NCBI GenBank assembly: GCA_037305845.1
Contig: CP147778.1
Span: 3,512,205 to 3,576,204 of the forward strand
DNA: 64,000 nt
Source of the DNA: Candidatus Freyarchaeum deiterrae
Lineage (GTDB): Archaea > Asgardarchaeota > Jordiarchaeia > Jordiarchaeales > Jordiarchaeaceae
Reading direction: 5' to 3'
The notes below the pieces were generated by a model. It had not been told where the DNA came from. It was given only the letters and a program-made list of their open reading frames with translations, and did not search any database. The position numbers and the translations under genes were made by a program. Below are positions 1 through 42,978 of this stretch, piece after piece (position 1 is the stretch's first letter; every line of letters begins with the position of its first letter).

Positions 1-2313
1 TCTAATAACACTGCAACTAACAATAATTACGGTTTCGCACTATGCGATAGCTCAAACAATAATAATCTTTCGGGTAACACGGCAGACAGCAACACTTATG
101 AGAACGGCATCTACGGCGACGGCTTCTGCCTGAACTCTAGCTCGTATAATATTCTTTCTGATAACACCGCAAACAAAAACGGCTTTGGCTTCCACCTAAA
201 CCCCGGCTCTAACTACAATACTCTTTCGGATAACAACGCAACCAACAACTGGCAAGCTGGCTTCTGGCTATACTCCAGCTCAAACAACAATCTTTCGGGA
301 AACATAGCCACAAACAACCACCAAGGCTTCACCCTAGCAGATAGCTCGAACAACATTCTCTTGGGCAACACCGCGAACAAAAACAGTATAGGCTTCTATC
401 TGGCCAGCTCTTACAATACTCTTTCGGGTAACACCGCAAACAACAACGACCAAGGCTTCTATATAATCTACGGCTCTTACAATACTCTTTCGGGTAACAC
501 CGCAAACAACAACGATGTCGCCGGGTACTACCCATGGTCCAGCGACGGTTTCTTCCTATGGTACAGCCCGTACAACAATCTTTCGAACAACACTGCAAAC
601 TACAACAAATGCGGCTTCTACCTAGCCTACAGCTCTTACAACACTCTTTCGGGAAACACTGCAACCAACAACACTTACCACGGCTTCTACCTAGACTACA
701 GCTCGGACAACAATATTCTTTCTGGCAACACTGCTCTAAACTGTAATACGGGATACTATTGGTCTTCCGACAGTAGTAATAATGATTTTACGGGCAGTGT
801 TTGGGCCAACTACCTGTGTGTGAACATCACAGACCCTCTGGGGCTTCCTATTCCTGGCGCAGAGATTAACGTTGAAACCGACGGAACACCGGTATACGCT
901 ACACCCCATTTTGGAGGTTTAAACGATACAACCGATTCGAATGGTTTAACCCCATGGATCATTGTCACCTACGAGACTGGTACAGGAATAGACCAGATGA
1001 CTTTGAACACCACCAACGTCACCGTGTACTACGCACAGTTGCCCTTCTCAAACAATTCAAGAACGGTTAGCATGTCTGCGTCACATGTAGAAACATTCCA
1101 GGTGGAGACGGTGACTATCACCTCACCATCCGAGGGAGCCATACTAACCAACGCCGATGTCCTCTTAGCATGGACTAGCAGCGACAACACGGGCGTAGAC
1201 CACTACGCGGTCAGAATCGACGGCGGAAACTGGACCAGTGTGGGTACGAGTCTCAGCTACAATTTCTTCGGTCTCTCAGACGGCTCTCACACCGTTGATG
1301 TGAGGGTCTTCGACCTTGCGGGTAACAACGCCACCACATCTGTGTCATTCTTCGTGGACACTACTCCGCCATCTGTGACTATCACCTCACCTACTGCGAA
1401 TGAGCTGTTTAATACCACCAGTGTTACAGTGAACTGGACTGGCAGCGACGACACCGGCATAGACCACTACGAGGTTATACTTGACAGCGGTTCCTGGACT
1501 AGTGTGGGGACGAGTCTCAGCCACGTGTTCAGTGTTTCCAACGGTACTCACACCGCGTACGTTAGGGCCTTCGACCTTGTGGGTAACAGCGTCACCGGCT
1601 CTGTTTCCTTCAATGTGGACACTACTCCGCCAACTGTGACTATCACCTCACCCTCCGGGGGAGCAGTACTTCCCACCAATGTTACAGTGAACTGGACTGG
1701 CAGCGACGACACCAGCATAGCCTACTTTGAGGCTAGGATTGACGGAAATATCTGGGTTAATGTATCCACGAGTCTCAGCCACACCTTCACCGGTGTCTCA
1801 AACGGTTCTCACACCGTTGATGTTTTAGCTTTCGACCTTGCGGGTAACAACGCCACCGGCTCTGTTTCCTTCAACGTGGACACTACTCCGCCATCTGTGA
1901 CTATCACCTCACCTACTGCGAATGCGATGTTTAATACCACCAGTGTTACAGTGAACTGGACTGGCAGCGATGATACCGGCATAGACCACTACGAGGCCAG
2001 GATTGACAGCGGCTCCTGGGGCAACATGGGAACTAACACCAGCTACGTGTTCAGCAGCTTGTCCGACGGTCTTCACACAATTGATGTTATGGCCTTCGAC
2101 CTTGCGGGTAACAACGCCACAGCTTCTGTATCCTTTACCGTGGCTTCCGTGCAACCAGGACAATCTCAGACAATGCTCCTGGCTCTCCTGTCGTTGGCTG
2201 GAACGCAGGGAGGAGGAACCAGTCCTCTGGTCTACGTTGCTATCATAGGTGTCGTGGGTGTGGGTGTAGTGGCTGCTGGTTTGTTCTACTACTTCCGCAG
2301 AGTGAACGCTTAA
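1..2313 (+). CDS. Membrane-anchored surface protein: parallel beta-helix (NosD/CASH-like) repeats, 4 Ig-like domains, C-terminal TM (5' end outside the window)
   Basis: Frame 1 is open from base 1. It has GFxLxxSSNNxLSGNTAxxN repeats, four ~87-aa VTITSP...D.AGN repeats, and a terminal TM followed by YYFRR. Confidence 0.9.
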   Translation, partial: SNNTATNNNYGFALCDSSNNNNLSGNTADSNTYENGIYGDGFCLNSSSYNILSDNTANKNGFGFHLNPGSNYNTLSDNNATNNWQAGFWLYSSSNNNLSGNIATNNHQGFTLADSSNNILLGNTANKNSIGFYLASSYNTLSGNTANNNDQGFYIIYGSYNTLSGNTANNNDVAGYYPWSSDGFFLWYSPYNNLSNNTANYNKCGFYLAYSSYNTLSGNTATNNTYHGFYLDYSSDNNILSGNTALNCNTGYYWSSDSSNNDFTGSVWANYLCVNITDPLGLPIPGAEINVETDGTPVYATPHFGGLNDTTDSNGLTPWIIVTYETGTGIDQMTLNTTNVTVYYAQLPFSNNSRTVSMSASHVETFQVETVTITSPSEGAILTNADVLLAWTSSDNTGVDHYAVRIDGGNWTSVGTSLSYNFFGLSDGSHTVDVRVFDLAGNNATTSVSFFVDTTPPSVTITSPTANELFNTTSVTVNWTGSDDTGIDHYEVILDSGSWTSVGTSLSHVFSVSNGTHTAYVRAFDLVGNSVTGSVSFNVDTTPPTVTITSPSGGAVLPTNVTVNWTGSDDTSIAYFEARIDGNIWVNVSTSLSHTFTGVSNGSHTVDVLAFDLAGNNATGSVSFNVDTTPPSVTITSPTANAMFNTTSVTVNWTGSDDTGIDHYEARIDSGSWGNMGTNTSYVFSSLSDGLHTIDVMAFDLAGNNATASVSFTVASVQPGQSQTMLLALLSLAGTQGGGTSPLVYVAIIGVVGVGVVAAGLFYYFRRVNA
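1108..2140 (+). repeat. Four tandem Ig-like domain repeats (~260 bp each)
   Basis: gtgactatcacctcacc and ttcgaccttg(c/t)gggtaac recur. Repeats 2 and 4 start almost identically. Confidence 0.85.
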
Positions 2314-6900: not shown

Positions 6901-8232
6901 AGAAACGCATGTCACATTGTGGTTCACTTGATTCCAAGTGTTTGCCGCTTGGCTGACTCCTCCAGTCAGACCCACGATGTAGTATTGGAAGGGTATCTGT
7001 ATGAAATGTTCACCGGAGTTTCTCATGTCGTTTCTGACACCGAAGGATGAGACTCCACTGTCAAAACCCGTGCCGTACTCCATACTAGTACTATTTGCTG
7101 TGTCTCTCGGCCACTGTGAAGAGCCGAGAAAACCTAAACCGATCCCATCGTTACGTACCAGAGCCATGTAGTTCTGAGGCTGTGTTCCCGCTTTAGCCTC
7201 GACAAAAGGAATGCTCGTGGCTATTCCGAGATTGTTATTGTCCACGTAGAAATTCCACGAACTATCTACAGATGTAACCGCAAAATCGTATATTGGAACA
7301 GCGTTAGAGTTTATACTGAAGGGAGTACAGTTCTGGATCTGAATTGCAACTATGCCTGTGTAAGCGTAGAAGGTGTAAGTCTTGTTCATTGGCCCATAGC
7401 TTCCTCCAACTGTGAAGATATCTGTGCTGGTCTTGCTAATCGTGACAATAGCTCTTATGGGTCCGTTTTCAATGACATTGATAGTCCAATTGAGTGTATT
7501 GCCCAAGCCAAACCGTCCGTTATCATCAGCATCTATACGGTCTATTCCTTTGTGCACTCCACTCGTTGGGATGGTTTCAACTCCGTTTATCTGGAACGAT
7601 TGGAATGACGCGTCATTATCGTATGTTAAATCAGCTGAGTAAGACTGATAGTAGCCACTTATTACACCTGTACTAAAACTGAAAGTACTACTACTAGTTA
7701 CGGTGATGCTGAGGTTGCTTGGTTCTGGCTCAGGTGCTCCAAAGGTACTATTATAGTAGAGGTAGTATGTTGACGTTCCACTCTTTGTTACATTAACTGG
7801 GAAAAGCAGGTCGCAGCTCCTAAGGTAACCGTCACCGTAATATGTTGCGTTTGAAATTTGGCTGGGTAATTTTACCCAACTGGCTGTGGTGCTGTTGTAG
7901 TAGGTTAGCTTGGTGCTGTTTTTATTACAGTTTCCATCCAAGAAGTTCATGTATACACTTGCTGGTGCGTTCACTCTGTCTGTGTATCCCGGCTCGGTTA
8001 CGTTTATTTCCTGTCTGAATGTGTAAGTGTAATTCCACCAGAGGTTTGGTTGTGGTTGCGGGTTGGCTTTTGAGGTTACCACGTTTGGCGCTTGTATACT
8101 GGTGAGAGTGTTAGGTTGGGGTGTGAATGCCGTTTGGTTGTTTTGTAGTATGAGGGGTATAGCAATTACTATGAGAAACGCTAGGATAATCACTAATCCT
8201 AAAATGTATTTCCTCTTGTTAGTATTGAACAT
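3964..8232 (-). CDS. 1422-aa cell-surface glycoprotein: N-terminal signal/TM, DUF2341-like start, Ig-like domains, TM, helical then acidic cytoplasmic tail
   Basis: N-terminal hydrophobic segment, WWNYTYTFRQEINV motif, many N-x-S/T sequons, TM near aa 1115-1140, E/K/P-rich tail. Confidence 0.8.
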   Translation of the reverse strand: MFNTNKRKYILGLVIILAFLIVIAIPLILQNNQTAFTPQPNTLTSIQAPNVVTSKANPQPQPNLWWNYTYTFRQEINVTEPGYTDRVNAPASVYMNFLDGNCNKNSTKLTYYNSTTASWVKLPSQISNATYYGDGYLRSCDLLFPVNVTKSGTSTYYLYYNSTFGAPEPEPSNLSITVTSSSTFSFSTGVISGYYQSYSADLTYDNDASFQSFQINGVETIPTSGVHKGIDRIDADDNGRFGLGNTLNWTINVIENGPIRAIVTISKTSTDIFTVGGSYGPMNKTYTFYAYTGIVAIQIQNCTPFSINSNAVPIYDFAVTSVDSSWNFYVDNNNLGIATSIPFVEAKAGTQPQNYMALVRNDGIGLGFLGSSQWPRDTANSTSMEYGTGFDSGVSSFGVRNDMRNSGEHFIQIPFQYYIVGLTGGVSQAANTWNQVNHNVTCVSGNEIRKIFPLQVNVTDNFGNPILGVNVTVYNDYNSGAPTGYNTSGLTNSLGQISFPLYESSNSSQYGIQAYVNPTPSYWNYSSQAIRWNTQDNFTAPITSITIAMNITSIYLEVYDSTTNLVQNANVTLNYTNVLYTPISQDVNRYFANCSFYAWANQQLNINVTAGGTPYGIQNIVNKTTGLNVSQPINMTGPLALQIHLSFSLTAKPTYLQCVNGTQILGMFWSDNVSFNVWFNNSITGIGIDAQLIGFNISDSNGFNRSINMTSTGTTGLYNANFNTTLVGLSGNTSYTITVFAIPSDVVNNQNPSPIAIFLLLNKINVIPTFISSWTIEWAPNLDLLPVTVNYTETHHYQPVLNDPEFPFTVLSTIPGTTHINEPMTDQGFGAFKVPSGTLSDLTPGQYIIQVSATKANYSIPSVSIYLTISSVSTILTVANTSLEGFFDQNISMSALFQRAGQGFPVLGASVTWGIRENTTIHGALNDPLNVGNYSGQITNGTLKSGVYTVVIQAVLTNYTAQYQYLTLNLKGTPTTFTSATLIPEIFGSSEYLFAGPLVQIENSWTFAPLSFTYVDRNGNPVPNATVTVTGGLPVFGGASGAGSVGTQQISASQLGGGNYLVLVPTFGLPPSSIPITILIQATNYEPQQISFMVSIKEKSIALTPSTRVPVSTFLLTLAAVAIPVALFTGYALIKRATIPAIIKRIDELIAQITRGEKLEVKLVPREIVVTNIRSEELAPLGLEPKADQYIPMELADRILPLLIESGMKKEEAYALAVELKTAAPREREKLLESVNVPGEISAKVLQTIDEAEERQEILKKPIKKPKKARTEKPEEAEETEPEPEEVETELSKELEKSETKETELNIPDEWLKEQEPEKPKAETPTVVEEPKTPEPEKAEIKTEQEWEVLKQPEPEKIAEPEKVESPKETSGDKEGIAPTTAATAAAEEESGEQDSEESDASSETESKGKRKKEPKSMKRIS

Positions 8233-8734: not shown

Positions 8735-10780
8735 TTATTCTTTGAATTTGTCCAGTTTTTCAATGAGGCTTACTAGTTCTTTCTGAAGTTTTTCCCTGAG
8801 CTCTATATCCTGAGAAGTTATTGTGCCCTTAAGCTCTTTGTTTTGCAGCTCCTCTATTTGCGTTCTTACCTCTAGGAACTGGTTCTGGATATTTTGCATC
8901 TTCTCCAAGTCTTTCGGTGTCAACTTCTTCTCCAGCAAGGAGGGTGCCCTTGATATGAATAAACCGGCGTAGATGTAGTCTTTCTGAACCTTGTCGTACT
9001 TGGCCTCTGTCTTATACCGCTCAATGATGTACTTCTTGAAATCCATTTCACCCGAATCATACCGGGACTTCAGTTCCTCAAGCTTCGCCCCATAATTGTT
9101 AACGTCTTTCTGCAGGTTATTCTTATTCCTCGCCAATTTTTCTATCTTCTGTTTCTGAAGCCTTTGCACCTCATCCAAACTAATTAAAGACCCTAAAATA
9201 GAGGGAAAGGCTTCACTAAACTGGGTTACTCTGCCCTTCCAGCCTTCCAGTTCCTTATGATATTGTTGCTCGACGTTTATGAGAAACTCGTGCAGTTTGC
9301 TTCTAATCCAGAATTCCTCATTAAGACCTAACTCGCCCGCAATACAGGTAGCAGTGAGCATTTTTGTCTCCTCACGGATGAATGTCCCGAACTCTGTCCC
9401 CAGCCTCTTCATGCCTCCAACCTTCATCTCCGCTAGAAATGACTTGACCGCTGACATGAACCCGGAAACAAGTACGACGTCCTGCTCCATAGAAATGAAG
9501 TCTAAAGACCAGATCATAGTACTAGTAGAAGTGTGGTCGACAATGATGCTCTCCATATTCCTCATGGCATTTATGGGAATCCTTCTCTTCTTTTCCTCGA
9601 GATAAAGAGAAGCTCCTGACACTGCGGCGACGCCTATAATGCCAATAGTCAAAAAGATGTTGTTCTGTCCTTGAGTTTGGAAAATTGAACCCAGCATATA
9701 GCCCTCAAGAAGAGTTGTCATAATAATGCTCGCATAAAGATTTGCACCATAAACAAAAACATCAGCAGAAAAGTTAACAGTACTAAACCAAGTGGAGGTA
9801 AAATTGAAAACTAGGATACTCGAAGAACCAAAACCTCCTGTGATATTACAAGTACCCGTTCCTCCAGTAGAACCTAGTATCGAATTTCCATTAACTTGTA
9901 AGCTTATGTTTGAAGGAAAAGGCAACCCGGACCCAGTTAAATTGGTGGCACTTAGATACACTCTGGTAGAAAAATCGGTGTCGTTCAGTGCCGTTACCAC
10001 CAGTGGTGTTACAGAGGTAACATTGTAAGCTGAATAATTACCACTAGTATCAACAGTGTAACCCCAGTTCAAAAATTGACTAGAAAGAGATGTGTTCTGG
10101 GCTGCAACTACAAAAAATGTTCCGTTGTCGGTATTATTTGGATACAAAGGCACCACTCCACCAAATCCATGTACACCACTTGTTATATCTATTGTTTTCC
10201 ATGTGTTGTTTGCCTGACTTGTAAAGTCGTAAGTTAACCAAGTAGTGATGTTTGTGCCCGGTTCAATACTAGACGTGGTCGAGTTCCAAGTCGCATTGTA
10301 AATTGAAAAATACATAAAGAGAGTTTTAGTGCTCGGAGAGCCCATATTTTTAACAGCAATTAGGTACAAGCTAACATTATACAGATAACAAGGTTGGTTA
10401 TCAATGTTAAAGGACATCGCGTACGTGGAATTCCACAAAGACACCGTACTTCCCGGAGATTCAGCTATTCCAATAGTGCTGTTAGGAGCAGTTATGCCTG
10501 ATAAACTGAAATTCACACTGTCAACCTGCGGCACACCCGATAGTTCAACCACTAAAGGAGAACTAGTGTTCAAATTAGGATAAGAGCTAAAAAATATTGT
10601 ATCTTTAGCGTATACTGACGAACTATGTAAAGTTAAACCACTATTCGCAAATTTATAATCCGCCAAGTTTAACAGTGGCCCAGTCGAAGCGTTGGAAAAA
10701 CATAAAGCCAAAGGCACCATTAGAGGAACCACTAGAATCAATATGCAGAGAACTATCAGAATAAACCTTCTTCTATCCAA
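8735..10780 (-). CDS. Single-pass surface protein with cytoplasmic longin-like domain and SHOCT-like coiled coil
   Basis: Signal segment, sequon-rich ectodomain, TM followed by KKRR, DVVLVSGFMSAVKSF and LEGWKG...F motifs, then heptads with GEMD/GTIT turns. Confidence 0.75.
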   Translation of the reverse strand: MDRRRFILIVLCILILVVPLMVPLALCFSNASTGPLLNLADYKFANSGLTLHSSSVYAKDTIFFSSYPNLNTSSPLVVELSGVPQVDSVNFSLSGITAPNSTIGIAESPGSTVSLWNSTYAMSFNIDNQPCYLYNVSLYLIAVKNMGSPSTKTLFMYFSIYNATWNSTTSSIEPGTNITTWLTYDFTSQANNTWKTIDITSGVHGFGGVVPLYPNNTDNGTFFVVAAQNTSLSSQFLNWGYTVDTSGNYSAYNVTSVTPLVVTALNDTDFSTRVYLSATNLTGSGLPFPSNISLQVNGNSILGSTGGTGTCNITGGFGSSSILVFNFTSTWFSTVNFSADVFVYGANLYASIIMTTLLEGYMLGSIFQTQGQNNIFLTIGIIGVAAVSGASLYLEEKKRRIPINAMRNMESIIVDHTSTSTMIWSLDFISMEQDVVLVSGFMSAVKSFLAEMKVGGMKRLGTEFGTFIREETKMLTATCIAGELGLNEEFWIRSKLHEFLINVEQQYHKELEGWKGRVTQFSEAFPSILGSLISLDEVQRLQKQKIEKLARNKNNLQKDVNNYGAKLEELKSRYDSGEMDFKKYIIERYKTEAKYDKVQKDYIYAGLFISRAPSLLEKKLTPKDLEKMQNIQNQFLEVRTQIEELQNKELKGTITSQDIELREKLQKELVSLIEKLDKFKE

Positions 10781-11035: not shown

Positions 11036-13933
11036 TTATTTCTTTAGTTTTTCCAGCTTCTCTATAAGAGACACTAACTCCGACTGCAGCTTATCCCTAC
11101 GCTTATGATCCTTCTCTGTAATCTTACCCTCTAGCTCTTTCCTTCGCAGCTCCTCAATTTCCATCCTGAGTTTAAGGAAATTCTCCTGAATCTTCTCCAC
11201 GTCCTCAGTGGCTTCCGGCTTAACCTTCTTCGCCTTCGTCGTGGGCGGCACCCTTGACAAGAAGAGGCTGACCCGAATGTATTCCTTCTGAACCATGTCA
11301 TATTCCGGATCTATCTCAGCCGTTCCCGCTTCAAATTCCGCCTTACTGATTTCCTTAGCTTCAAATTGCTTATTTAGAGTCTCCAGTTGAGAACCCAGAT
11401 TATTGAGTTCACCTTGAAGCTTCGCTTTCTCGTTCTCCAGCTTCAAAATTCTTTGTTTATGAAGCTCCTCAGCCTTCTCAAGATCTATCACCGAAGCCAG
11501 AATCGTTGGGAATGACTTTCTGAAAGGCGCAACATCACCATTCCATTTCTCAAGCGTCTCAAAGTGTTGCTGCTCAGCCGTGGAAACGAAGTCACGCAGC
11601 TTCTGCCTAATCCAGTTCTCCTCCGCTGGAGTGTTACCACCAGTGATACAGGTAATGGTCAGAAGAACACTGTCCTCTCTGATAAACGTTCCAAACTCGG
11701 TCTCAAGCTTCCTAAGACCACCCTTCATCATCTCACCCATGAACGACTTAACCGCCGACATGAATCCAGAAACCAGAGTCACATCCTGCTCCATCTTGAT
11801 AAAGTCGAACGCCCACAAAGTAGCACCAGTAGGAATATGATCCACGATAATATTCTCAAGACTAGACAACGCCGCAGAAGGAATCCCTCTTCTCTTGCCC
11901 GCCACAAAGCCAACAGCAACCACAGCAACGACAGCACCCACCAACCCGATCACAAGAAGCATACTGCCCATGTTTGGGCCCGACTGGGAGGCCCCCAACA
12001 GGAGAGCAGCAAGACTATTACTGGGAGCTGGCGGAGGCACACCATAGAGAATAGTAATCCCACCAGAAGTCGGATTACCAAAGTAGACACCACCATCAAC
12101 TGTCACATTAACAGTATAGGAACTATTAGAAGGAAAAGTGACACGTAATGTGTAGACTCCACTGCCATTCTCGACCGACGAGTTAATATGAGCACTCCCA
12201 CTAACACTAAAGTTAGCTAGAGCGATACCTGCGATTCCCTCATTTATATCGGTTCTATTAAATCCCACTGTTATGTTAGCAAGCTGATTAAAGTCAGCAT
12301 AACTGTCATGACTTAATACGGTCAAACTAGTTAGCGCAGAGTTATTCACTTGGAAACTACCTATTTCCCTGTAACCGACCTCAACGCTTGAGTTAAAGAA
12401 AACCGTAAAGTTGTAGTTTCCAAAGGAGGTAATATTTTTCTGAACATCAAGTGGGAACCAGAAAGAGCTAGTAGTAGTGCCAGAAGTTGCGTTAGTGAAT
12501 CTTAGTAATGGTGTTGAATTGTAAATGGAGAGATTGGCATTCCAGCTATTACTGATAGTTGTGTTGAGAGCTATGTTAATGGTTAAGTTGTCAGGCACGA
12601 TAGCCCCTATATTTGTAACGTTATGACCTTGATTCATTACGGAAATGTTTGTAATATAGTTGGGTGCGTTGCACTGCAAAGTCCAAGTACCATTAGTTGC
12701 CTCAAATACAAGAGGACGAGGGAAGGAAATATAATTACTCTGTGTTACGTTAAAAGCGTAAGAAGTTGCATTCTGCCAATCGAAGGGAATAGTCACATTT
12801 ACATAGTTATGAACAATCGTAGAGTTAGCAGGGAAACCATTCCCAGAACCTGTTGAAACATCCACTGTAACAGTCCAATTAGCAACGGAAGTGGTATCAA
12901 CCTGATAATTGGTAGTAGCGTTAATGTTTTTGCCGTAAGTTACATTCCAAAAAGTAACATTGTAAGTAACTGTAGACATCCAAGTGGTTGTAACATTAAA
13001 GAAGATAAAACCAGACGAAGGTGTGATGTTGAGATACATCGTATACATACCTTCTCCCACATTGCTCGTATTCGAAACAGACGTACCATTAATATTTAAT
13101 GATATATCAGTGGGGTAAACGCTCTGAGGGTTTGTTTGATTACTAGCACTAACGCTAACATTTAGCGTTAAATCAAGTGGATGGCCAGTTGCGGTCCAAG
13201 TTGGACCATTCCACCAAGCATACCCTTTTGGTGTATATCCTCCACTGGGGTTTCCAACCGCATTCCAATTGCCATTAAGAAGGTCTCCCGCTCCGTTTCT
13301 CTCAATCGTTATGAAAAATGTGTGATTGAAGGTATCACTATCGTTTAAAAGAATGTGACTAAAAGGAATGTCCTTCAAATATGTACCTGTGGTCAATGAT
13401 ACATTCAAAACAGCTGGACCTCTTTGAAGATTTGGTATAGGAAAACCTGTACCGTTGTTTTGAGCATTATATACTCGGAGGTTTGCAGTCCCACTAAACA
13501 AAATAGTCAAATTTAAGATAGCAGAATCAAGGTATGCTGTTGGATTTGTTATCTGAAAGGACATAGCCGTTGAGGTAAGCGATATTTGCCAAGAATCGTT
13601 CGATGCAGTATTAGTACTTATGATTGTGCAGTTCGGGGCGGTGATGTCTTCAAGTGTTATGTTTGCGTATGTTATGTTCCAATTTTGGGGGCAGGGTATA
13701 TTGAAGCCTGTTGTTGTATCGTTTATCGTATTGGGGGAGGCTGTATTATTTGTTTGATTGAGGATTGTTGGTATTTGACCACCTATCCCACTGGGGGACT
13801 TTGCTATTGGGTTGCTGGAGGGGTAACTCGTATTGGTAAATAGGAGGGGATTGTTGTATGTCATTATTATGGCTGCGAGGGGTAATAATGCTATAAGAAT
13901 TAGGACGATTATTATTGCAGCTTTTCTTTTCAT
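11036..13933 (-). CDS. Paralogous single-pass surface protein with cytoplasmic longin-like domain and coiled coil
   Basis: Same architecture. MEQDVTLVSGFMSAVKSF and TEFGTFIRE are nearly identical to the neighbour. Confidence 0.75.
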   Translation of the reverse strand: MKRKAAIIIVLILIALLPLAAIIMTYNNPLLFTNTSYPSSNPIAKSPSGIGGQIPTILNQTNNTASPNTINDTTTGFNIPCPQNWNITYANITLEDITAPNCTIISTNTASNDSWQISLTSTAMSFQITNPTAYLDSAILNLTILFSGTANLRVYNAQNNGTGFPIPNLQRGPAVLNVSLTTGTYLKDIPFSHILLNDSDTFNHTFFITIERNGAGDLLNGNWNAVGNPSGGYTPKGYAWWNGPTWTATGHPLDLTLNVSVSASNQTNPQSVYPTDISLNINGTSVSNTSNVGEGMYTMYLNITPSSGFIFFNVTTTWMSTVTYNVTFWNVTYGKNINATTNYQVDTTSVANWTVTVDVSTGSGNGFPANSTIVHNYVNVTIPFDWQNATSYAFNVTQSNYISFPRPLVFEATNGTWTLQCNAPNYITNISVMNQGHNVTNIGAIVPDNLTINIALNTTISNSWNANLSIYNSTPLLRFTNATSGTTTSSFWFPLDVQKNITSFGNYNFTVFFNSSVEVGYREIGSFQVNNSALTSLTVLSHDSYADFNQLANITVGFNRTDINEGIAGIALANFSVSGSAHINSSVENGSGVYTLRVTFPSNSSYTVNVTVDGGVYFGNPTSGGITILYGVPPPAPSNSLAALLLGASQSGPNMGSMLLVIGLVGAVVAVVAVGFVAGKRRGIPSAALSSLENIIVDHIPTGATLWAFDFIKMEQDVTLVSGFMSAVKSFMGEMMKGGLRKLETEFGTFIREDSVLLTITCITGGNTPAEENWIRQKLRDFVSTAEQQHFETLEKWNGDVAPFRKSFPTILASVIDLEKAEELHKQRILKLENEKAKLQGELNNLGSQLETLNKQFEAKEISKAEFEAGTAEIDPEYDMVQKEYIRVSLFLSRVPPTTKAKKVKPEATEDVEKIQENFLKLRMEIEELRRKELEGKITEKDHKRRDKLQSELVSLIEKLEKLKK

Positions 13934-22041: not shown

Positions 22042-22460
22042 AGTAAACCAGAAAACTCAAGGAGGTTATATACATAGCCCCAAAATTTCAGCATTTTCTA
22101 AACATATTTTCTAAGATTGGAGTTAAGTTTGGGAAGTCTTCAACCAGGCTGTTCCTTCTTCAATGCAGCCAGTTAAACTATGAGAACACGTGTCCCCCCT
22201 CCCCCGACAATAACAAAATTTATTAGAAGGTTCAAAGGTACATATAAAAAAATAATTAAAATGTATAAAAATATAATAGTGTTGTATAAATAAAATTTGT
22301 ATGTAAACTATTTAAAGGAAAAGCCATTCCAAAAAAAGGGCGTTGAATAGCTAACTAAAAACCGTTAACGATACGGGTAATACGGGAGAAGAGAAGAGAG
22401 GAGGAATAAACTGAAACAGACAATTCGCCTTTTCTGCAGTTCCAGACTAGAAGTAAAAGA

Positions 22461-22535
22461 GAGGGAAACAAGGACTCCAAAACATACTAACTAAAATTGG
22501 AGCCTTGCCCTACGTAGAAACTTTACTGTTTCTAC
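22461..22535 (+). promoter_or_regulatory. Conserved two-hairpin 5' leader element
   Basis: AGGG-AAA-CAAGG-A-CTCCAA...TTGGAG-CCTTG-CCCT followed by GTAGAAAC-tttact-GTTTCTAC. Confidence 0.65.
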
Positions 22536-22565
22536 AACCTAAAAAAAACTAACCATAAAAACTGA

Positions 22566-24677
22566 GTGAAAAACATGAGAAACATCAGAGCAAATAAAAA
22601 GGCACTAAAGATAGCAGCAGTTCTACTCACGGCAGCAACAATCCTCACAGCGGTTGCCAATACCCAAAGCCAGAGCCAAAGCCAAAACGTGTATCCGTTC
22701 ATCAGCTTATACCTGCAGGGCGTCAACCCGCCAAGTCCCAACAACGCCATCGTTCTACCAAAGGCTGACATAGGTACTAGCGTCACATTTGACCACGATT
22801 ACACTGAAACGATAAATGTGACCGCGGACAACATAGTGATAGACGGAGCCGGACACTCTGTAACAGGCCCCGGATCATCCGGGATCGGCTTCAACTTGAC
22901 CGGCAGAAATAACGTGACCATAAAGAACGTCAATGTCAATGGGTGGCAGTACGGCTTCTACCTGTACCAAAGCTCGAACAACAACATCATAAATAACACA
23001 GCAAACAACAACACAAACAGCTACGGCTTCGCCCTACTCTCCGGTTCGAACAACACTCTTACAAATAACACCGCCACAAACAACACCTACGGCTTCGAAA
23101 TATCCTCCGGCTCTAACAACAACAATCTTACAAATAACACCGCCACAAACAACAACTTCGGCTTCCACCTATACTTCAGCTCTAACAACAATAATCTTAC
23201 GGGTAACACCGCAAACAACAACTCTCAATTCGGCTTCTTCCTAGACACCAGCCCCACCAACAATAATCTTATAAATAACACAGCAAAAAACAACGGTGCT
23301 GGCTTCGGCCTATCCTCCGGCTCTAACAACAATAATCTTACGGGTAACACCGTAAACAACAACTACTACGGCTTCTACCTATACTCCAGCTCTAACAACA
23401 ACATCATAAATAACACAGCAAACAACAACACAAACGGCTACGGCTTCTACATACGCTACAACTCGAACAACAACACTCTTACGGGTAACACCGCAAACAA
23501 CAACACAAACGGCTTCTACCTAAACTCCAGCTCCAACTACAACAATATCATAAATAACACCGCAACATACAACACCAACAACGGCTTCTACCTAAACTCC
23601 AGCTCGAACAACAATAATCTTACTGGTAACATTGCAAACAGCAACACCAACGACGCCGGCTTCTACCTATTCTCCAGCTCAAACAATACTCTTTCTGGTA
23701 ACAACGCAACCAGCAACACCATCTACGGCTTCTACCTAGACTCCAGCTCCAACAACAACATTCTTACAAATAACAACGCAAACAACAACGCCCACTTCGG
23801 CTTCATCCTAGACTCCAGCCCCACCAACAATACTCTTACGGGTAACACCGCAACCAACAACTCAAACGGCGGATTCTACCTACACTACAGCTCGAACAAC
23901 ACTCTTACAAATAACAACGCAACCAACAACGGCTACGGCTTCTTTCTACAATACATCTCAAACAACAATACTCTTTTGGGTAACACCGCAAACAACAACA
24001 CAAACGGCTTCTACCTATGGTTCAGCTCGGACAACAACACTCTTACGGGTAACACCGCAACCAACAACTACTATGGCTTTTATTTGAGGGATGCGTCTAC
24101 GGGTAATAACCTCCTAGGTAATACTGCTTTAAACTGTACTGCTACAGGGTATAACTGGACTGCTGACTGTATCAATAATAATTTTACGGGTAGCGTGGAG
24201 AAGTACTATTTGCGTATAAGCGTCGTCGATCTTCTGGGCTCTCCTATTCCGGGTGCAGATGTTTTGGTTGTGACCGATGGAAGAATTGTGTATTGGACCT
24301 CACACTTTATTGTTACACTCCCCATAAGCCCCCCAACCGACTCTAATGGTGTCACCCCCTGGATTGCGGTCCTCTACCGAACGTTCACAACAAACCAGTC
24401 CATGACTATGAACACCACCAATGTTACCGTGTACTATCAGGGAATCTCCGTCTCGGGAAGCAACCCTAGGACGGCTAACATGTCCACATCACACGTGGAA
24501 ACGTTCCAGGTGGCGACGATGACTGCAACGTCTCTAGCGTTTTCCTCATTGATGCTGTCTAATTTGCAGGGAGGAGGAGGCACCAGTCCGCTGGTTTACG
24601 CTGCTATCATAGGTGTCTTGGGCGTGGTTGTAGTAGCAGGTGGTTTGATCTACTACTTCCGCAGAGTGAAAACTTGA
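22566..24677 (+). CDS. Membrane-anchored parallel beta-helix (NosD/CASH-like) surface protein
   Basis: Signal peptide, about 17 repeats of 22-24 aa, C-terminal TM plus YYFRR. ATG 22575 aligns with the paralog start. Confidence 0.9.
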   Translation: MKNMRNIRANKKALKIAAVLLTAATILTAVANTQSQSQSQNVYPFISLYLQGVNPPSPNNAIVLPKADIGTSVTFDHDYTETINVTADNIVIDGAGHSVTGPGSSGIGFNLTGRNNVTIKNVNVNGWQYGFYLYQSSNNNIINNTANNNTNSYGFALLSGSNNTLTNNTATNNTYGFEISSGSNNNNLTNNTATNNNFGFHLYFSSNNNNLTGNTANNNSQFGFFLDTSPTNNNLINNTAKNNGAGFGLSSGSNNNNLTGNTVNNNYYGFYLYSSSNNNIINNTANNNTNGYGFYIRYNSNNNTLTGNTANNNTNGFYLNSSSNYNNIINNTATYNTNNGFYLNSSSNNNNLTGNIANSNTNDAGFYLFSSSNNTLSGNNATSNTIYGFYLDSSSNNNILTNNNANNNAHFGFILDSSPTNNTLTGNTATNNSNGGFYLHYSSNNTLTNNNATNNGYGFFLQYISNNNTLLGNTANNNTNGFYLWFSSDNNTLTGNTATNNYYGFYLRDASTGNNLLGNTALNCTATGYNWTADCINNNFTGSVEKYYLRISVVDLLGSPIPGADVLVVTDGRIVYWTSHFIVTLPISPPTDSNGVTPWIAVLYRTFTTNQSMTMNTTNVTVYYQGISVSGSNPRTANMSTSHVETFQVATMTATSLAFSSLMLSNLQGGGGTSPLVYAAIIGVLGVVVVAGGLIYYFRRVKT

Positions 24678-37689: not shown

Positions 37690-37914
37690 ATGATTCTTGG
37701 CAAAGTTAGTGAAAAAGGACAGATAGTAATACCAAAAGAGATCCGAGACAAGTTCAACATAAAGCCGGGAGACACTATAGCCTTCAAAATGATAGACGGA
37801 AAAGTAATCATTGAGAAGATAATTGAAAAAAGAACAAAGGACATTTTGAAAGCTGGCAAACCGGTTGAACCAAGCGTTGAATTCCAAAGAAAGCTCCGGG
37901 AGGAGTGGGAGTGA
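37690..37914 (+). CDS. vapB: AbrB/MazE-fold antitoxin
   Basis: KGQIVIPKEIRDKFNIKPGD. Confidence 0.9.
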   Translation: MILGKVSEKGQIVIPKEIRDKFNIKPGDTIAFKMIDGKVIIEKIIEKRTKDILKAGKPVEPSVEFQRKLREEWE

Positions 37915-38330
37915 GGGTCTGCCTTGATACAAACGTATTCATCGCTATTAAGAACAAGGAAAACGATTCTCAACACTGCGAGAGAATACTTGACGCTATA
38001 GAAGATAAAGAAATAGAAGGAGTAATTTCGACTATTACCATTGCAGAAACACTAGTAGGATTCTATTGGAATAAAGAAGAGAAAGAAGCAGAACACTTTT
38101 TAGTACAAATTCTTCAGAATTACCATGTGTTGCCAGTTGATATTGAAGTATCCGAGAAAGCTGCGAGGCTCAGGGCTCAACAGGGAATTAAACTTCCCGA
38201 CGCAGTTATCATGGCTACAACCATAATCACCGACGCAGACTACTTGATAACTAAGGATGATGCACTAAAAAAGAAAATAGGAATCAAATCCCTAACTCCC
38301 CAAGAATTTGCAAGCAAATATCTGAAATAA
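37905..38330 (+). CDS. vapC: PIN-domain toxin
   Basis: LDTNVF, E, DAVI.AT and ITKD motifs. Confidence 0.9.
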   Translation: MGVRVCLDTNVFIAIKNKENDSQHCERILDAIEDKEIEGVISTITIAETLVGFYWNKEEKEAEHFLVQILQNYHVLPVDIEVSEKAARLRAQQGIKLPDAVIMATTIITDADYLITKDDALKKKIGIKSLTPQEFASKYLK

Positions 38331-38560: not shown

Positions 38561-38806
38561 ATGAAAGTAAAGACATCTTCAAAGGGACAGGTAGTTATTC
38601 CTAAAGAGATAAGGGAGAAACTGGGTATTAAGCCAGGTACAATTCTAAACATTAAGGCTGAGGAAAGAAGAGTGATACTTGAGTTAGCTCCAGAAGCGCC
38701 GGACGTATTTGTTGAGGCTGGCGAAATTGCGGAGCAAAGTTTGAGAGAATCTAAGGCGAGCAGTGACAAGGCAGAGAGACTTCTGAGGGATCTTGGTGTC
38801 AGCTAA
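38561..38806 (+). CDS. vapB: AbrB/MazE-fold antitoxin
   Basis: KGQVVIPKEIREKLGIKPG. Confidence 0.9.
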   Translation: MKVKTSSKGQVVIPKEIREKLGIKPGTILNIKAEERRVILELAPEAPDVFVEAGEIAEQSLRESKASSDKAERLLRDLGVS

Positions 38807-39236
38807 GGTTTCAATTGACACAGGGGTTTTCACAGAGTACATTGATGTCAAGGGATCCTTCCATAAACTCGCCAAAGCTCTCTTTGACTCCCTTTACATG
38901 ATAGAGGTGTTTTTACCAGGAGTTATTCTTGCGGAAACCTGTTATGTCGCGGCGAGAATCTACAAAATCTTGGGATTAGGTCAATATTTTGAAAGAGCAT
39001 TGAAACTTGTTGAGTGGCTCAGTGCACATCCGTCAATCAAAGTGGTTCGTAGCTTCGACTTGGATGTGGAAGCTGCAAAAATCAAAACACACTACAACGT
39101 AGCCTTAACTGACTGCTACATCTTAGCAGTTTCAAAAATTAGGGACTGTACGGCGATATTCCGAAAGAGGGAAAAGGAGATGCCGCCCAGCATAGAAAAA
39201 GACTTCAACATTCTATTTCTTGAAGACTATGCATAA
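38793..39236 (+). CDS. vapC: PIN-domain toxin
   Basis: IDTGVF, AE and ALTDCYILA motifs. Confidence 0.85.
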   Translation: MVSAKVSIDTGVFTEYIDVKGSFHKLAKALFDSLYMIEVFLPGVILAETCYVAARIYKILGLGQYFERALKLVEWLSAHPSIKVVRSFDLDVEAAKIKTHYNVALTDCYILAVSKIRDCTAIFRKREKEMPPSIEKDFNILFLEDYA

Positions 39237-39580: not shown

Positions 39581-40024
39581 CCGACTCCGTTTTTTGAGTT
39601 TTTCTTAAAGTTTTTAGAAGAAGGAAAGCTAATTGTTCGTTTGAATACCAAAAATAGCTCTAAAAAAGTTACTGAACTGAAAGCCACAACAGTGAGATGC
39701 AGAACGCATCGCTCTCACCCCGAAAAGAAGCGTTCAATAAAGCTTCCTTCTCGACCTTTCAGTGGTTTAGTTTTACCTTCAAATTGAACATTTTTGCTTG
39801 AGCTCCTTTTTTTGACTTTTCTTTAGTTGCCAATTGAATTAGCACAATAAGGAATGAAGGAAACCATAAATTATAAATATGTTATACACACATTGTCGGG
39901 CAACATAAACTTTTCAATACTAAACCTAACAGAGAGAAGGGACGGAGAAACAGAAAACTCGAAAAAAGAGCCAACTACCTGCCTAATGCTCCGTCTATTT
40001 TTAGCACCCGAATAAGTGAGGTGA

Positions 40025-40096
40025 GAAGGAAAGCAAGGTATCCTAAACTAAACGTGGAACCTTGCCCTTTAGTAGAAACTTACTTTAGTTTCTACT
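40025..40096 (+). promoter_or_regulatory. Conserved two-hairpin 5' leader element
   Basis: AAGG-AAA-GCAAGGT-A-TCC...GGA-ACCTTGC-CCTT followed by AGTAGAAACT-tacttt-AGTTTCTACT. Confidence 0.65.
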
Positions 40097-40134
40097 CAAA
40101 AATGCTAATAAAAAAATAGAATTGAGGAAAAATC

Positions 40135-42978
40135 ATGAAATGCATCAGGAGAAACAAGAAAACCCTAAAGATAGCAACAGTTTTAGCAGCAGTTCTACTC
40201 ACAACCACAATCCTAATAGCGGTTACCACAATACAGAACCAAAGCCAAATCCAGAACCAGAACACGTATCCCCTCATAAACTTGTACCTGCAGGGCATCC
40301 CCCCAAACCCTAACACCGTCATTCAACCAAAGATGGACATCCACGATAACTACGATTTTCTAGGTAACATCAGTGAAACGATAAATGTGACGGGGAACGA
40401 CATAGTGATAGACGGACACGGATACTACCTGCTGGGCACCGGATTTTCCGGGTACGGCTTCAATTTGACTAACAGAAACAACGTAACCATCAAGAACGTT
40501 ATAGTTACAGGGTGGAATCAAGGCTTCCGCCTAATCAATAGCTCGAACAATAATCTTACGAATAACAACGCTACAGGCAACAACATGGGCTTCTTCCTAG
40601 ACACCAGCTCGAACAATAGTCTCACGGGTAACAACGCCACACTCAACGAATACTATGGCTTCGACATATCCACCAGCTCGGGCAACAATAGGCTTTCGGG
40701 TAACATCGCAGACAACAACGACATCTACGGCTTCAACATAGAATTCAACTCTAACAATACTCTTTCGGGTAACACCGCAAACAACAACCAACAAAACGGC
40801 TTCTACCTGGACTCCAGCTCCAACAATAATCTTACGGGTAACTCAGCAAACAGCAACACCTACACCGGATTCTACCTAACCAATAGTCCATCCAATACTT
40901 TTACGGGTAACAATGCCACAGGCAACATCAACAACTACGGCTTCATCCTACTCTCCAGCTCAAACAATACTCTTACGGGTAACACAGCAAACAGCAACAC
41001 TTGGGGTTTCTACCTAGTCTCTAGCTCGAACAACAATAATCTTACGGGTAACACAGCAAACAGCAACATCAACTACGGCTTCATCCTATCCTCCAGCACG
41101 TACAATAATCTTACGGGTAACAACGCCACAAACAACAATTACGGCTTCTACCTAGTCTCTAGCTCGAACAACAATACTCTTACAGGTAACACCGCAAACA
41201 ATAACCCCTCTAGCATCGGTTTCTTACTAGACTCCAGCTCAAACAATACTCTTTCGGGTAACACTGCAAGCAACATCGGCGACGGCTTCTACCTATTGTC
41301 CAGCTCGAACAACAATCTTTCTGGTAACAACGCATACAATAACACCTACGGTTTCTACCTATTCTCTGGCTCCAATAATATTCTTTCCGGTAACAACGCA
41401 ACCAACAGCACCAGCGAAGGCTTCTACCTAGTATCCGGCTCGAACAACAATACTCTTACCGGTAACAACGCAACCAACTGCAACAATGGCTTCTACCTAG
41501 ACACCAGCACATACAATAATCTTACGGGTAACACCGCAAACAACAACGGCTTGGACGGCTTCAGCCTAGTCTCCAGCTCAAACAATACTCTTTCGGGTAA
41601 CAACGCAACCAGCAACGCCTACGGCTTCAGCGTAGACTCCATCTCGACCTACAATAATCTTACGGGTAACACTGCAAACAGCAACATCAACTACGGCTTC
41701 AGCGTAGACTCCAGCTCAAACAATACTCTTTCGGGTAACAACGCAACCAGCAACGCCTACGGCTTCTACCTAGACTCCAGCTCGTACAATACTCTTACGG
41801 GTAACAACGCAAACAGCAACACCGACACCGGCTTCTACCTATCCGCCAGCACGTACAATAATCTTACGGGTAACACCGCAAACAACAACGACATCAACGG
41901 CTTCTTCCTACAATCCAGCTCAGACAATAATCTTACGGGTAACAACGCAAACAACAACAACAACGGCTTCTACCTATCCTCCAGCACGTACAATAATCTT
42001 ACGGGTAACAACGCAAACGACAACGACATCAACGGCTTCTTCCTACAATCCAGCTCAGACAACAATACTCTTTCGGGTAACAACGCCACAGGCAACACCA
42101 ACTACGGCTTCAGCCTAGAATCCAGCTCAAACAATACTCTTACGGGTAACAACGCCACAAGCAACTACTACGGCTTCAGCATACAAGCCAGCTCGACCTA
42201 CAATAATCTTACGGGTAACACTGCAAACAGCAACACCGACACCGGCTTCTTCCTACAATCCAGCTCAGACAATAATCTTACGGGTAACAACGCAAACAAC
42301 AACAACAACGGCTTCTACCTAGGCTCCAGCTCGAACAATAATCTTACGGGTAACAACGCCACAAACAACTACGTCGGCTTCCAATTGATTACGACATCTA
42401 CTGGTAATAACCTCTGGGATAACATTGCTCTAAACACTACAACTGGAGGATACCAACGGAGTATTGACAGTATTAATAATAATTTTACGGGCAGCGTGGA
42501 GGCGTACTATCTTCGTGTGAACGTCACAGATTCGGGAGGTCTACCTTTGTCTGGAGTAGAGGTGCAAGTTGTTTCAAACGGAACAAGACCAGTGTGGTAT
42601 GCTACGCCGCATTTTGGAGGAATGGGCTTGCCAACTGGTTTGGATGGTTTAACGCTGTGGTTCGCTGTGCCCTATCAGACCTACATGGCAGACAATTCTA
42701 CGACTATTAACAACAACACCGTTACCGTGTGGTACTCCACTTCGTCGGAGATAGCCGTTTTCTCAAGCAATCCCAGAACGGGGTTCGACATGTCCGAATC
42801 GCACACGGAAGACTTCACCGTGACTTCCTGGCAACCAATAACGTCTCAAGCAATGCTCCTCGCTACGCTGCTGTTGGCTGGAACGCAAGGTCCTAGTCCC
42901 CTGATTTACGCTGCCATAGGTGTTGTGGGTGTGGTGCTTGTTATTGGTTTGGTCTACTACTTCCGCCATAGGGTGTAA
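40135..42978 (+). CDS. Membrane-anchored parallel beta-helix (NosD/CASH-like) surface protein
   Basis: Signal peptide, about 28 repeats, C-terminal TM plus YYFRHR. Confidence 0.9.
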   Translation: MKCIRRNKKTLKIATVLAAVLLTTTILIAVTTIQNQSQIQNQNTYPLINLYLQGIPPNPNTVIQPKMDIHDNYDFLGNISETINVTGNDIVIDGHGYYLLGTGFSGYGFNLTNRNNVTIKNVIVTGWNQGFRLINSSNNNLTNNNATGNNMGFFLDTSSNNSLTGNNATLNEYYGFDISTSSGNNRLSGNIADNNDIYGFNIEFNSNNTLSGNTANNNQQNGFYLDSSSNNNLTGNSANSNTYTGFYLTNSPSNTFTGNNATGNINNYGFILLSSSNNTLTGNTANSNTWGFYLVSSSNNNNLTGNTANSNINYGFILSSSTYNNLTGNNATNNNYGFYLVSSSNNNTLTGNTANNNPSSIGFLLDSSSNNTLSGNTASNIGDGFYLLSSSNNNLSGNNAYNNTYGFYLFSGSNNILSGNNATNSTSEGFYLVSGSNNNTLTGNNATNCNNGFYLDTSTYNNLTGNTANNNGLDGFSLVSSSNNTLSGNNATSNAYGFSVDSISTYNNLTGNTANSNINYGFSVDSSSNNTLSGNNATSNAYGFYLDSSSYNTLTGNNANSNTDTGFYLSASTYNNLTGNTANNNDINGFFLQSSSDNNLTGNNANNNNNGFYLSSSTYNNLTGNNANDNDINGFFLQSSSDNNTLSGNNATGNTNYGFSLESSSNNTLTGNNATSNYYGFSIQASSTYNNLTGNTANSNTDTGFFLQSSSDNNLTGNNANNNNNGFYLGSSSNNNLTGNNATNNYVGFQLITTSTGNNLWDNIALNTTTGGYQRSIDSINNNFTGSVEAYYLRVNVTDSGGLPLSGVEVQVVSNGTRPVWYATPHFGGMGLPTGLDGLTLWFAVPYQTYMADNSTTINNNTVTVWYSTSSEIAVFSSNPRTGFDMSESHTEDFTVTSWQPITSQAMLLATLLLAGTQGPSPLIYAAIGVVGVVLVIGLVYYFRHRV

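Follow-up and report, generated by a model that had tools for sequence, protein, structure and literature searches.

Paralogous beta-helix proteins with a conserved coil scaffold and a variable strand in a Jordarchaeum-like Asgard archaeon

Background

Parallel beta-helix repeat proteins of the PbH1/CASH class (PF13229, PF05048 and TIGR03804), which include archaeal surface proteins annotated as 'NosD domain-containing', are built from a coil motif of 22 aa that folds into three strands per coil. The same motif makes up most of g3, a gene in the 64-kb stretch of DNA analyzed here (hereafter the window; contig CP147778.1), which is the end of the closed 3,576,204-bp genome of a Jordarchaeum-like Asgard archaeon. 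We read g3 as one of about 18 paralogous cell-surface beta-helix proteins in which a conserved coil scaffold carries a variable strand, and we give the explanation as a whole, including the origin and use of the variable strand discussed below, a probability of about 0.78.

Among proteins that share the fold, polysaccharide lyases, epimerases and tailspikes use the outer side of one sheet, between loops, to bind glycans. Beta-helix adhesins are a second group of relevance, and those compared here are PfbA of Streptococcus pneumoniae (PDB 4MR0), the polymorphic membrane proteins of Chlamydia (PMC11166332) and the adhesins of Candida glabrata (PMC8746771). As is predicted for g3, such adhesins are surface-anchored rods, and some occur in multi-gene paralog families with repeated short motifs. 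A 2026 preprint found the beta-solenoid content of Asgard proteomes to be similar to that of other prokaryotes, and our literature search found no description of the g3 family in Asgard archaea. A preliminary description of the window had reported repeat units with variable NNC codons in three of its genes, g1, g2 and g3, and had likened them to the arrays of variable lymphocyte receptors (VLR) or transcription activator-like effectors (TALE).

Results

A whole-genome motif scan identified 18 genes of the family in the closed genome, namely g1, g2 and g3 in the window and 15 elsewhere, from which 272 coils were parsed by codon. The parts of g3 and its two paralogs in the window are as follows, with the basis of each assignment in brackets.

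40135..42978, + strand: g3, a complete gene of 947 aa for a predicted membrane-anchored beta-helix surface protein (open frame; matches to NosD, Beta_helix and TIGR03804; AlphaFold2 model)
40135..40326, + strand: g3, basic-hydrophobic N-terminal signal or anchor and Q/N-rich linker, aa 1-64 (conservation in paralogs; predicted local distance difference test score, pLDDT, <50 over residues 1-64)
40453..42459, + strand: g3, right-handed parallel beta-helix array with about 28 three-stranded coils of 22-24 aa (unit table; Tandem Repeats Finder, TRF; DSSP; Foldseek)
41571..42321, + strand: g3, recently duplicated units, seen as exact repeats of 79, 58, 44 and 43 nt that lie 2, 5 or 8 units apart (exact-repeat search; unit identities)
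42472..42850, + strand: g3, C-terminal beta-rich domain, common to the family and without a family match (paralog alignment; low pLDDT)
42907..42966, + strand: g3, C-terminal transmembrane helix, followed by a basic tail of the YYFRR type (model helix 925-944; motif kept in paralogs)
22566..24677, + strand: g2, a 703-aa paralog with 17-18 coils, array at about 22887-24146 (codon parsing; profile matches)
1..2313, + strand: g1, 3' part of a paralog of 1395 aa whose start lies 1875 bp before the window, with coils to about 753, then four Ig-like Big_7 repeats and the common C-terminal anchor (codon parsing; TRF)

Profile searches make g3 a clear member of the PbH1/CASH class of beta-helix repeat proteins and not a NosD. 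It matched Pfam NosD PF05048 at 2.7e-87 (292 bits; cut-off 23.6), Pfam Beta_helix PF13229 at 7.4e-69 (231 bits; cut-off 25.9) and the NCBIfam parallel beta-helix repeat TIGR03804 at 2.4e-111 (363 bits in 17 stretches; cut-off 19.45). Identity as a true NosD (TIGR04247) was rejected, with scores of 89.8 bits for g3 and 43.3 for g2 against a cut-off of 300. An AlphaFold2 model of g3, built on an alignment of ten paralogs, had a mean pLDDT of 81 and a predicted template modeling score (pTM) of 0.72, and residues ~70-740 of the helix were mostly above 90. The strands assigned by DSSP span E107-E775 and come three to each coil of 22-24 aa, with six residues in the first (x(-1) G F x L x) and three each in the second (N L T/S) and the third (T/N A N/T). 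One such coil has x(-1) G F x3 L x5 at E129-134, N L T at E140-142 and N A T at E145-147. An invariant Asn occupies the two-residue turn that leads from the second strand to the third. By general knowledge of such folds, we take this residue to form an asparagine ladder, by which the strands would be labelled PB1, PB2 and PB3; the conserved F, L, L and A would then fill the core of the coil. A Foldseek search with the model returned PL6 alginate lyases, AlgG/AlgE epimerases, phage tailspikes and depolymerases, NosD and the pneumococcal PfbA. The top matches are all right-handed parallel beta-helix proteins, and it is from them that the right-handedness of the g3 helix is taken.

The three window genes have a common layout of four parts. 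An N-terminal signal or anchor precedes the coil array, and after the array come a C-terminal beta-rich domain of ~130 aa and, at the very C-terminus, a membrane helix that ends in YYFRR. The paralog alignment shows that the N-terminal sequence MKxIRxNKKxLKIAxVLAAVLL and the C-terminal motif LAGTQGG.SPL.Y...GL.YYFRR are kept, an anatomy from which we infer a location at the cell surface. The Ig-like repeats of g1 were also found by TRF, with a period of 264 bp at 1171-2143. No NCBIfam model matched the C-terminal 200 aa of g3.

The end of these proteins (LAGTQGG.TSPL.Y, a Gly/Val-rich helix and YYFRR, at 42850-42975, 24550-24674 and 2190-2310, and in most paralogs) resembles a sorting signal. 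Its identification as an archaeosortase or exosortase substrate of the PGF-CTERM kind was rejected, given the absence of such an enzyme from the genome (no match to PF09721) and of a matching NCBIfam model. In two family members outside the window, at genome positions 345941-351016 (-) and 364655-368650 (+), the short basic tail is replaced by a Cys/His-rich, zinc-finger-like tail with ..CPHCGTLSHRDHLLEWIK.KG.CPSC..

The repeat unit of 66-72 bp that the preliminary description gave for the three window genes proved to be the true consensus across all 272 units and 18 genes: GGC TTC NNC CTA NNC ... AGC TCN AAC AAT ACT CTT WCG GGT AAC ACC GCA AAC AAC AAC. TRF reported 26.5 copies of a 69-bp unit in g3 (40540-42359), ~16 copies of a 69/72-bp unit in g2 (22950-24079) and 66-bp units in g1 (139-714). 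Codon parsing gave coil counts of ~28 for g3, 17-18 for g2 and ~27 for g1, in line with the repeat numbers of ~17 and ~28 first suggested, and the change of codon style past the last repeat was likewise borne out, third-position C/(C+T) in g3 being 0.74 within the array and 0.45 beyond it. The statement that the scaffold is near-identical between genes was too strong. Whole-unit identity averages ~70%, and the scaffold differs between genes by 17-18% at codon positions 1-2 and by 14-25% at synonymous third positions.

Scaffold codons are specific to their columns. Across the 272 units, GGC makes up 88% of the codons for the first Gly, TTC 97% for Phe, CTT 88% for the second Leu, GGT 85% for the second Gly and GCA 75% for Ala, and AAC accounts for 91-96% at Asn (96% for the ladder Asn). 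When two mismatches were allowed, scaffold DNA was present in 99 copies in the studied genome, 22 in the congeneric genome G002, 0-3 in other congeners and none in any other of 400 genomes from the phylum, numbers that fragmented assemblies probably under-report. At the protein level, the C-terminal domain is 67-73% identical in two contigs of Ca. Jordarchaeum madagascariense, the nearest named relative, and the genes that neighbor the family members on these two contigs map 70-320 kb away in the studied genome.

Two coil subtypes recur in g3 (40456-42447) and g2, one reading N-T-A-N (ACC GCA AAC) and the other N-N-A-T (AAC GCC ACA or AAC GCA ACC); the latter adds one N-x-T sequon. TRF also gives a two-unit period of 141 bp in g2. 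The recurrence of the subtypes and the 141-bp period suggest an old two-coil super-repeat.

Against this scaffold, four columns are variable (the residue that follows GF, the two that follow the first Leu and the 1-4 residues that precede GF), with amino-acid entropies of 2.8-3.7 bits and near saturation at codon positions 1-2. The reported preference for NNC codons at these positions is real. The third base is C in 75-92% of variable-column codons of the three window genes, and family-wide 1059 of 1551 variable codons end in C, where codon usage in the genome would give 561 for these amino acids. Their composition is Y 22.6%, S 13.9%, N 10.4%, D 8.6%, R 1.6%, K 0.5% and M 0.2%, and K, E, Q, M and W, for which no NNC or NNT codon exists, together make up 11% of variable residues. 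In congeneric genomes, the scaffold codons of G002 are the same as in the studied genome. In the array of G004, the first Leu is CTT or ATT, the second is CTA, and position x5 after the first Leu is TAT or TCT (13 of 13 T-ending), and in the array of G005 positions x5 and x6 are 73-91% T-ending. The third base of variable codons is therefore specific to the array and not universally C.

Comparison of column entropies with the strands of the model placed every variable column either in the longest strand (taken as PB1) or in one of the two turns beside it, a contiguous stretch in each coil. By strand alternation, the F and L of this strand would face the core, and the variable residues that lie between and after them, two in all, would face outward. 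As the variable columns are confined to one strand and its flanking turns, the variable residues would stack as one ladder-like face along the rod. In solved right-handed beta-helix lyases and tailspikes, the strand that would correspond to the variable strand of g3 is the usual glycan-binding face. The variable face is rich in Tyr, Ser, Asn, Asp and Gly and nearly free of Lys, Arg and Met. The remaining two faces have conserved Ser, Thr and Asn with many N-x-S/T sequons, which in g3 number 5.0 per 100 aa and lie mostly in scaffold columns; this density suggests heavy N-glycosylation of the beta-helix rods.

A diversity-generating retroelement or another mutator could also produce a pattern of NNC codons by targeted mutagenesis, in which adenine errors at AAC codons of a template yield NNC, as the preliminary description had considered for a retroelement. 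The excess of C at variable third bases agrees with such a process, as does the fact that most residues at the variable columns are NNC-encodable. The closed 3.58 Mb genome, however, has no reverse transcriptase: PF00078 (RVT_1) had no match at E <= 0.01, in a search that gave matches in 3 of 14 control genomes. Each of the 179 scaffold-like DNA copies falls on the coding strand within one of the 18 reading frames, and there is therefore no template repeat. Adenine is not singled out either. Mean conservation is 0.82 for consensus-A columns and 0.79-0.84 for G, C and T columns, scaffold adenines such as those of AAC AAC AAC and GCA are 86-100% conserved, and the consensus first bases of the variable codons are T, G and T, so that variation is found at T and G positions too. 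The 11% of residues beyond the reach of NNC and NNT are a further obstacle, as are the related arrays that carry NNT in place of NNC, and the variation covers 2 kb, 28 coils and 18 genes, where a retroelement would affect a single variable region of 100-200 bp. Retroelement involvement is thus refuted as far as sequence analysis goes, and we consider the probability of any such mutator to be negligible. The case carries a caution, in that an NNC pattern in Asn-rich repeats can mimic a retroelement signature without any such element.

The preliminary description had further proposed a surface repertoire diversified by recombination. In its strongest form, this would be frequent gene conversion or cassette recombination between paralogs, as in antigenic variation, with the scaffold similarity serving as the substrate of exchange. 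Units indeed do not cluster by gene: mean unit identity is 0.70-0.75 within genes and 0.68-0.70 between them, and nearest neighbors are often in other genes. Third positions are also conserved about twice as well in the scaffold as in the C-terminal domain. The absence of clustering by gene, however, is equally expected of old units, and the longest exact tracts common to arrays of different genes are ~40-46 nt, the conserved scaffold stretch between two variable positions. Longer tracts between genes (51-91 nt) lie outside the coil arrays, as judged by gene offsets, and no promoterless or partial cassettes were found outside the 18 full reading frames. For most unit pairs, the proportion of synonymous differences (pS) in the scaffold is 0.3-0.5, comparable to the N-terminal flank of g1, g2 and g3 (pS 0.41-0.46, dS 0.6-0.7) and somewhat lower than in their C-terminal domain (pS 0.55-0.62, dS 1.0-1.3). 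Frequent exchange between paralogs is accordingly a very unlikely account of the family. Cassette-based antigenic variation was rejected as a candidate, with no copies beyond the full-length frames and exact tracts shared within arrays of about 40-46 nt or less.

Within g3 itself, units have been duplicated. The non-adjacent blocks noticed earlier were recovered as exact repeats of 44 nt (41643 and 42192) and 43 nt (41885 and 42020), and were joined by repeats of 79 nt (41898 and 42243) and 58 nt (41571 and 41709). Units 15 and 17 are 97% identical, 19 and 21 are 96% identical, and 20 and 25 are 100% identical. Recombination is supported solely as unit duplication within the gene. What stands of the earlier proposal is therefore a set of paralogous solenoid proteins with a fixed scaffold and duplication of units within genes, and what lacks support is ongoing exchange between paralogs, given shared array tracts of at most ~46 nt.

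Other features lie outside these reading frames. A conserved region of ~300 nt is found upstream of g1, g2 and g3 (window positions 39830-40134 and 22260-22565, and L045:620-930 upstream of g1), with a mean column identity of 65% over 554 alignment columns. It holds a AAATTTATTAGAA box and, directly before the start codon, TGGAGCCTTGCCCT...GTAGAAACTT..GTTTCTAC, and may be a common promoter with a long 5' leader. Between 37905 and 39236 there are two small PIN-like frames (37905-38330 and 38793-39236), and the second of them is overlapped at its start by a small AbrB/SpoVT-like frame (38561-38806); judged from their translations, these frames appear to be arranged as in VapBC toxin-antitoxin pairs. 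Three large frames on the reverse strand, at 3964-8232 (1422 aa), 8735-10780 (681 aa) and 11036-13933 (965 aa), had no Pfam match or sub-threshold matches (Big_1 at 30 bits in the first).

Discussion

The DNA pattern of the g3 family is real and fits ordinary repeat-protein evolution. In the mechanism that we propose, arrays would be built by amplification of founder units, and units would share column-specific synonymous codons because they descend from those founders. Purifying selection would then keep the scaffold, while exposed positions would change at or somewhat above the synonymous rate. The ratio of nonsynonymous to synonymous differences (pN/pS), summed over unit pairs, is 1.0-1.7 in the variable columns and 0.18-0.35 in the scaffold. 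The fixed third base of the variable codons is best read as inherited from the founder units, a reading that the array-specific codons of the congeneric genomes support, and it would stay C because synonymous divergence is only partial. Retention of C would be helped by the cost of a C-to-purine change, which would turn TAC and TGC into stop codons and AAC, GAC, CAC and AGC into codons for the disfavored Lys, Glu, Gln and Arg. The number of units would shift by occasional unequal recombination or slippage within a gene, and no dedicated mutator would take part.

Several points weigh against this explanation or parts of it. A pN/pS near 1 is the outcome of diversifying selection or of a mere lack of constraint and does not tell the two apart; the variable face may therefore have no binding role. 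The proposed function of the family is read from fold and anatomy, and the predicted assignment of residues to the inside or outside of the coil from strand register and alternation. When a large protein collection was searched with the C-terminal domain, it returned two paralogs and one protein from Lokiarchaeia, the latter annotated as 'NosD domain-containing protein', and no strain variant. Two-fold scaffold sites (TTC 97%, AAC 91-96%) are more conserved than four-fold sites, which may point to some selection at the codon level in addition to descent. The genome has genes with a third-position C/(C+T) of up to 0.96, and translational selection for C-ending codons was considered. The ten most C-biased long frames include an aldehyde dehydrogenase, an SNF-family transporter, Cas1, Cas6, HypD and an NADH dehydrogenase-family (PF00146) protein; since the most C-biased genes are not classical highly expressed genes, the idea is unproven. 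Selection for C cannot account for the column-specific T-ending codons CTT, GGT, AAT and ACT.

We take the variable face to be a ligand-binding surface, most likely for glycans or other cell-surface molecules, and the paralogs, as a germline repertoire, would then differ in what they adhere to or recognize. Alternatively, the proteins could be structural components of the envelope or a stalk, or carbohydrate-active enzymes, with variable positions that are simply unconstrained and serve no repertoire. The pN/pS close to 1 in the variable columns is compatible with this, and alginate lyases, epimerases and phage depolymerases have the closest solved folds. However, residues in the variable columns are strongly non-random in composition (Tyr 22.6%, Lys 0.5%), and variation is limited to one strand and its turns, with the other two faces conserved. 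The coils are moreover very regular and lack the long loop insertions that are usual in catalytic clefts, and 18 paralogs with different faces suit recognition better than a single enzymatic role. We therefore hold a purely structural or enzymatic role to be improbable.

A bolder version of the ligand-binding explanation, which we put forward as speculation and doubt more than we credit, is that the ~18 proteins are a germline repertoire of recognition receptors, with a Tyr/Ser/Asp-rich face under true diversifying selection and fast turnover of arrays between strains. If true, its targets could be syntrophic partners, viruses or environmental glycans, and the family would be a beta-helix, prokaryotic counterpart of the repeat-receptor repertoires of eukaryotes. 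A large, genus-restricted family of membrane-anchored and probably glycosylated rods, each with a variable face rich in tyrosine, provides candidate mediators of cell-cell or cell-substrate contact.

Compared with other PbH1/CASH proteins, the g3 family is set apart by unusually long and regular arrays, by its own signal, C-terminal domain and membrane anchor, and by a DNA scaffold limited to the genus among the 400 genomes searched. Its relation to PfbA, the chlamydial polymorphic membrane proteins and the C. glabrata adhesins is one of overall design, with no kinship in sequence beyond the fold. The g3 anchor differs from theirs in being an archaeal C-terminal membrane helix, and any role of g3 in adhesion is putative. 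The best fold matches to g3 are the PL6 alginate lyases, AlgG/AlgE and the HK620 and CBA120 tailspikes (Foldseek E 2e-5 to 1e-3), at identities of 9-16% and with TM-scores that are low because the lengths differ. Unlike these proteins, g3 has coils without large loop insertions, and no catalytic residues were identified in it in this comparison. The target proteins of diversity-generating retroelements share with g3 a leaning towards NNC in variable codons and a surface-exposed product, but the g3 family has no reverse transcriptase, template or adenine specificity, its fold is not that of a C-type lectin, and its variation extends over the whole array.

A further parallel in design is with TALE, VLR and leucine-rich repeat (LRR) receptors, and the likeness to VLR and TALE that was drawn at the outset goes no further than analogy. 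The fold of g3 is unrelated to theirs and no somatic assembly from cassettes was seen; TALE repeats are near-identical in DNA except for two codons, whereas units of the g3 family are ~70% identical. The shared traits are a fixed repeat scaffold, in which each unit has a few variable positions along one surface, and a variable number of repeats.

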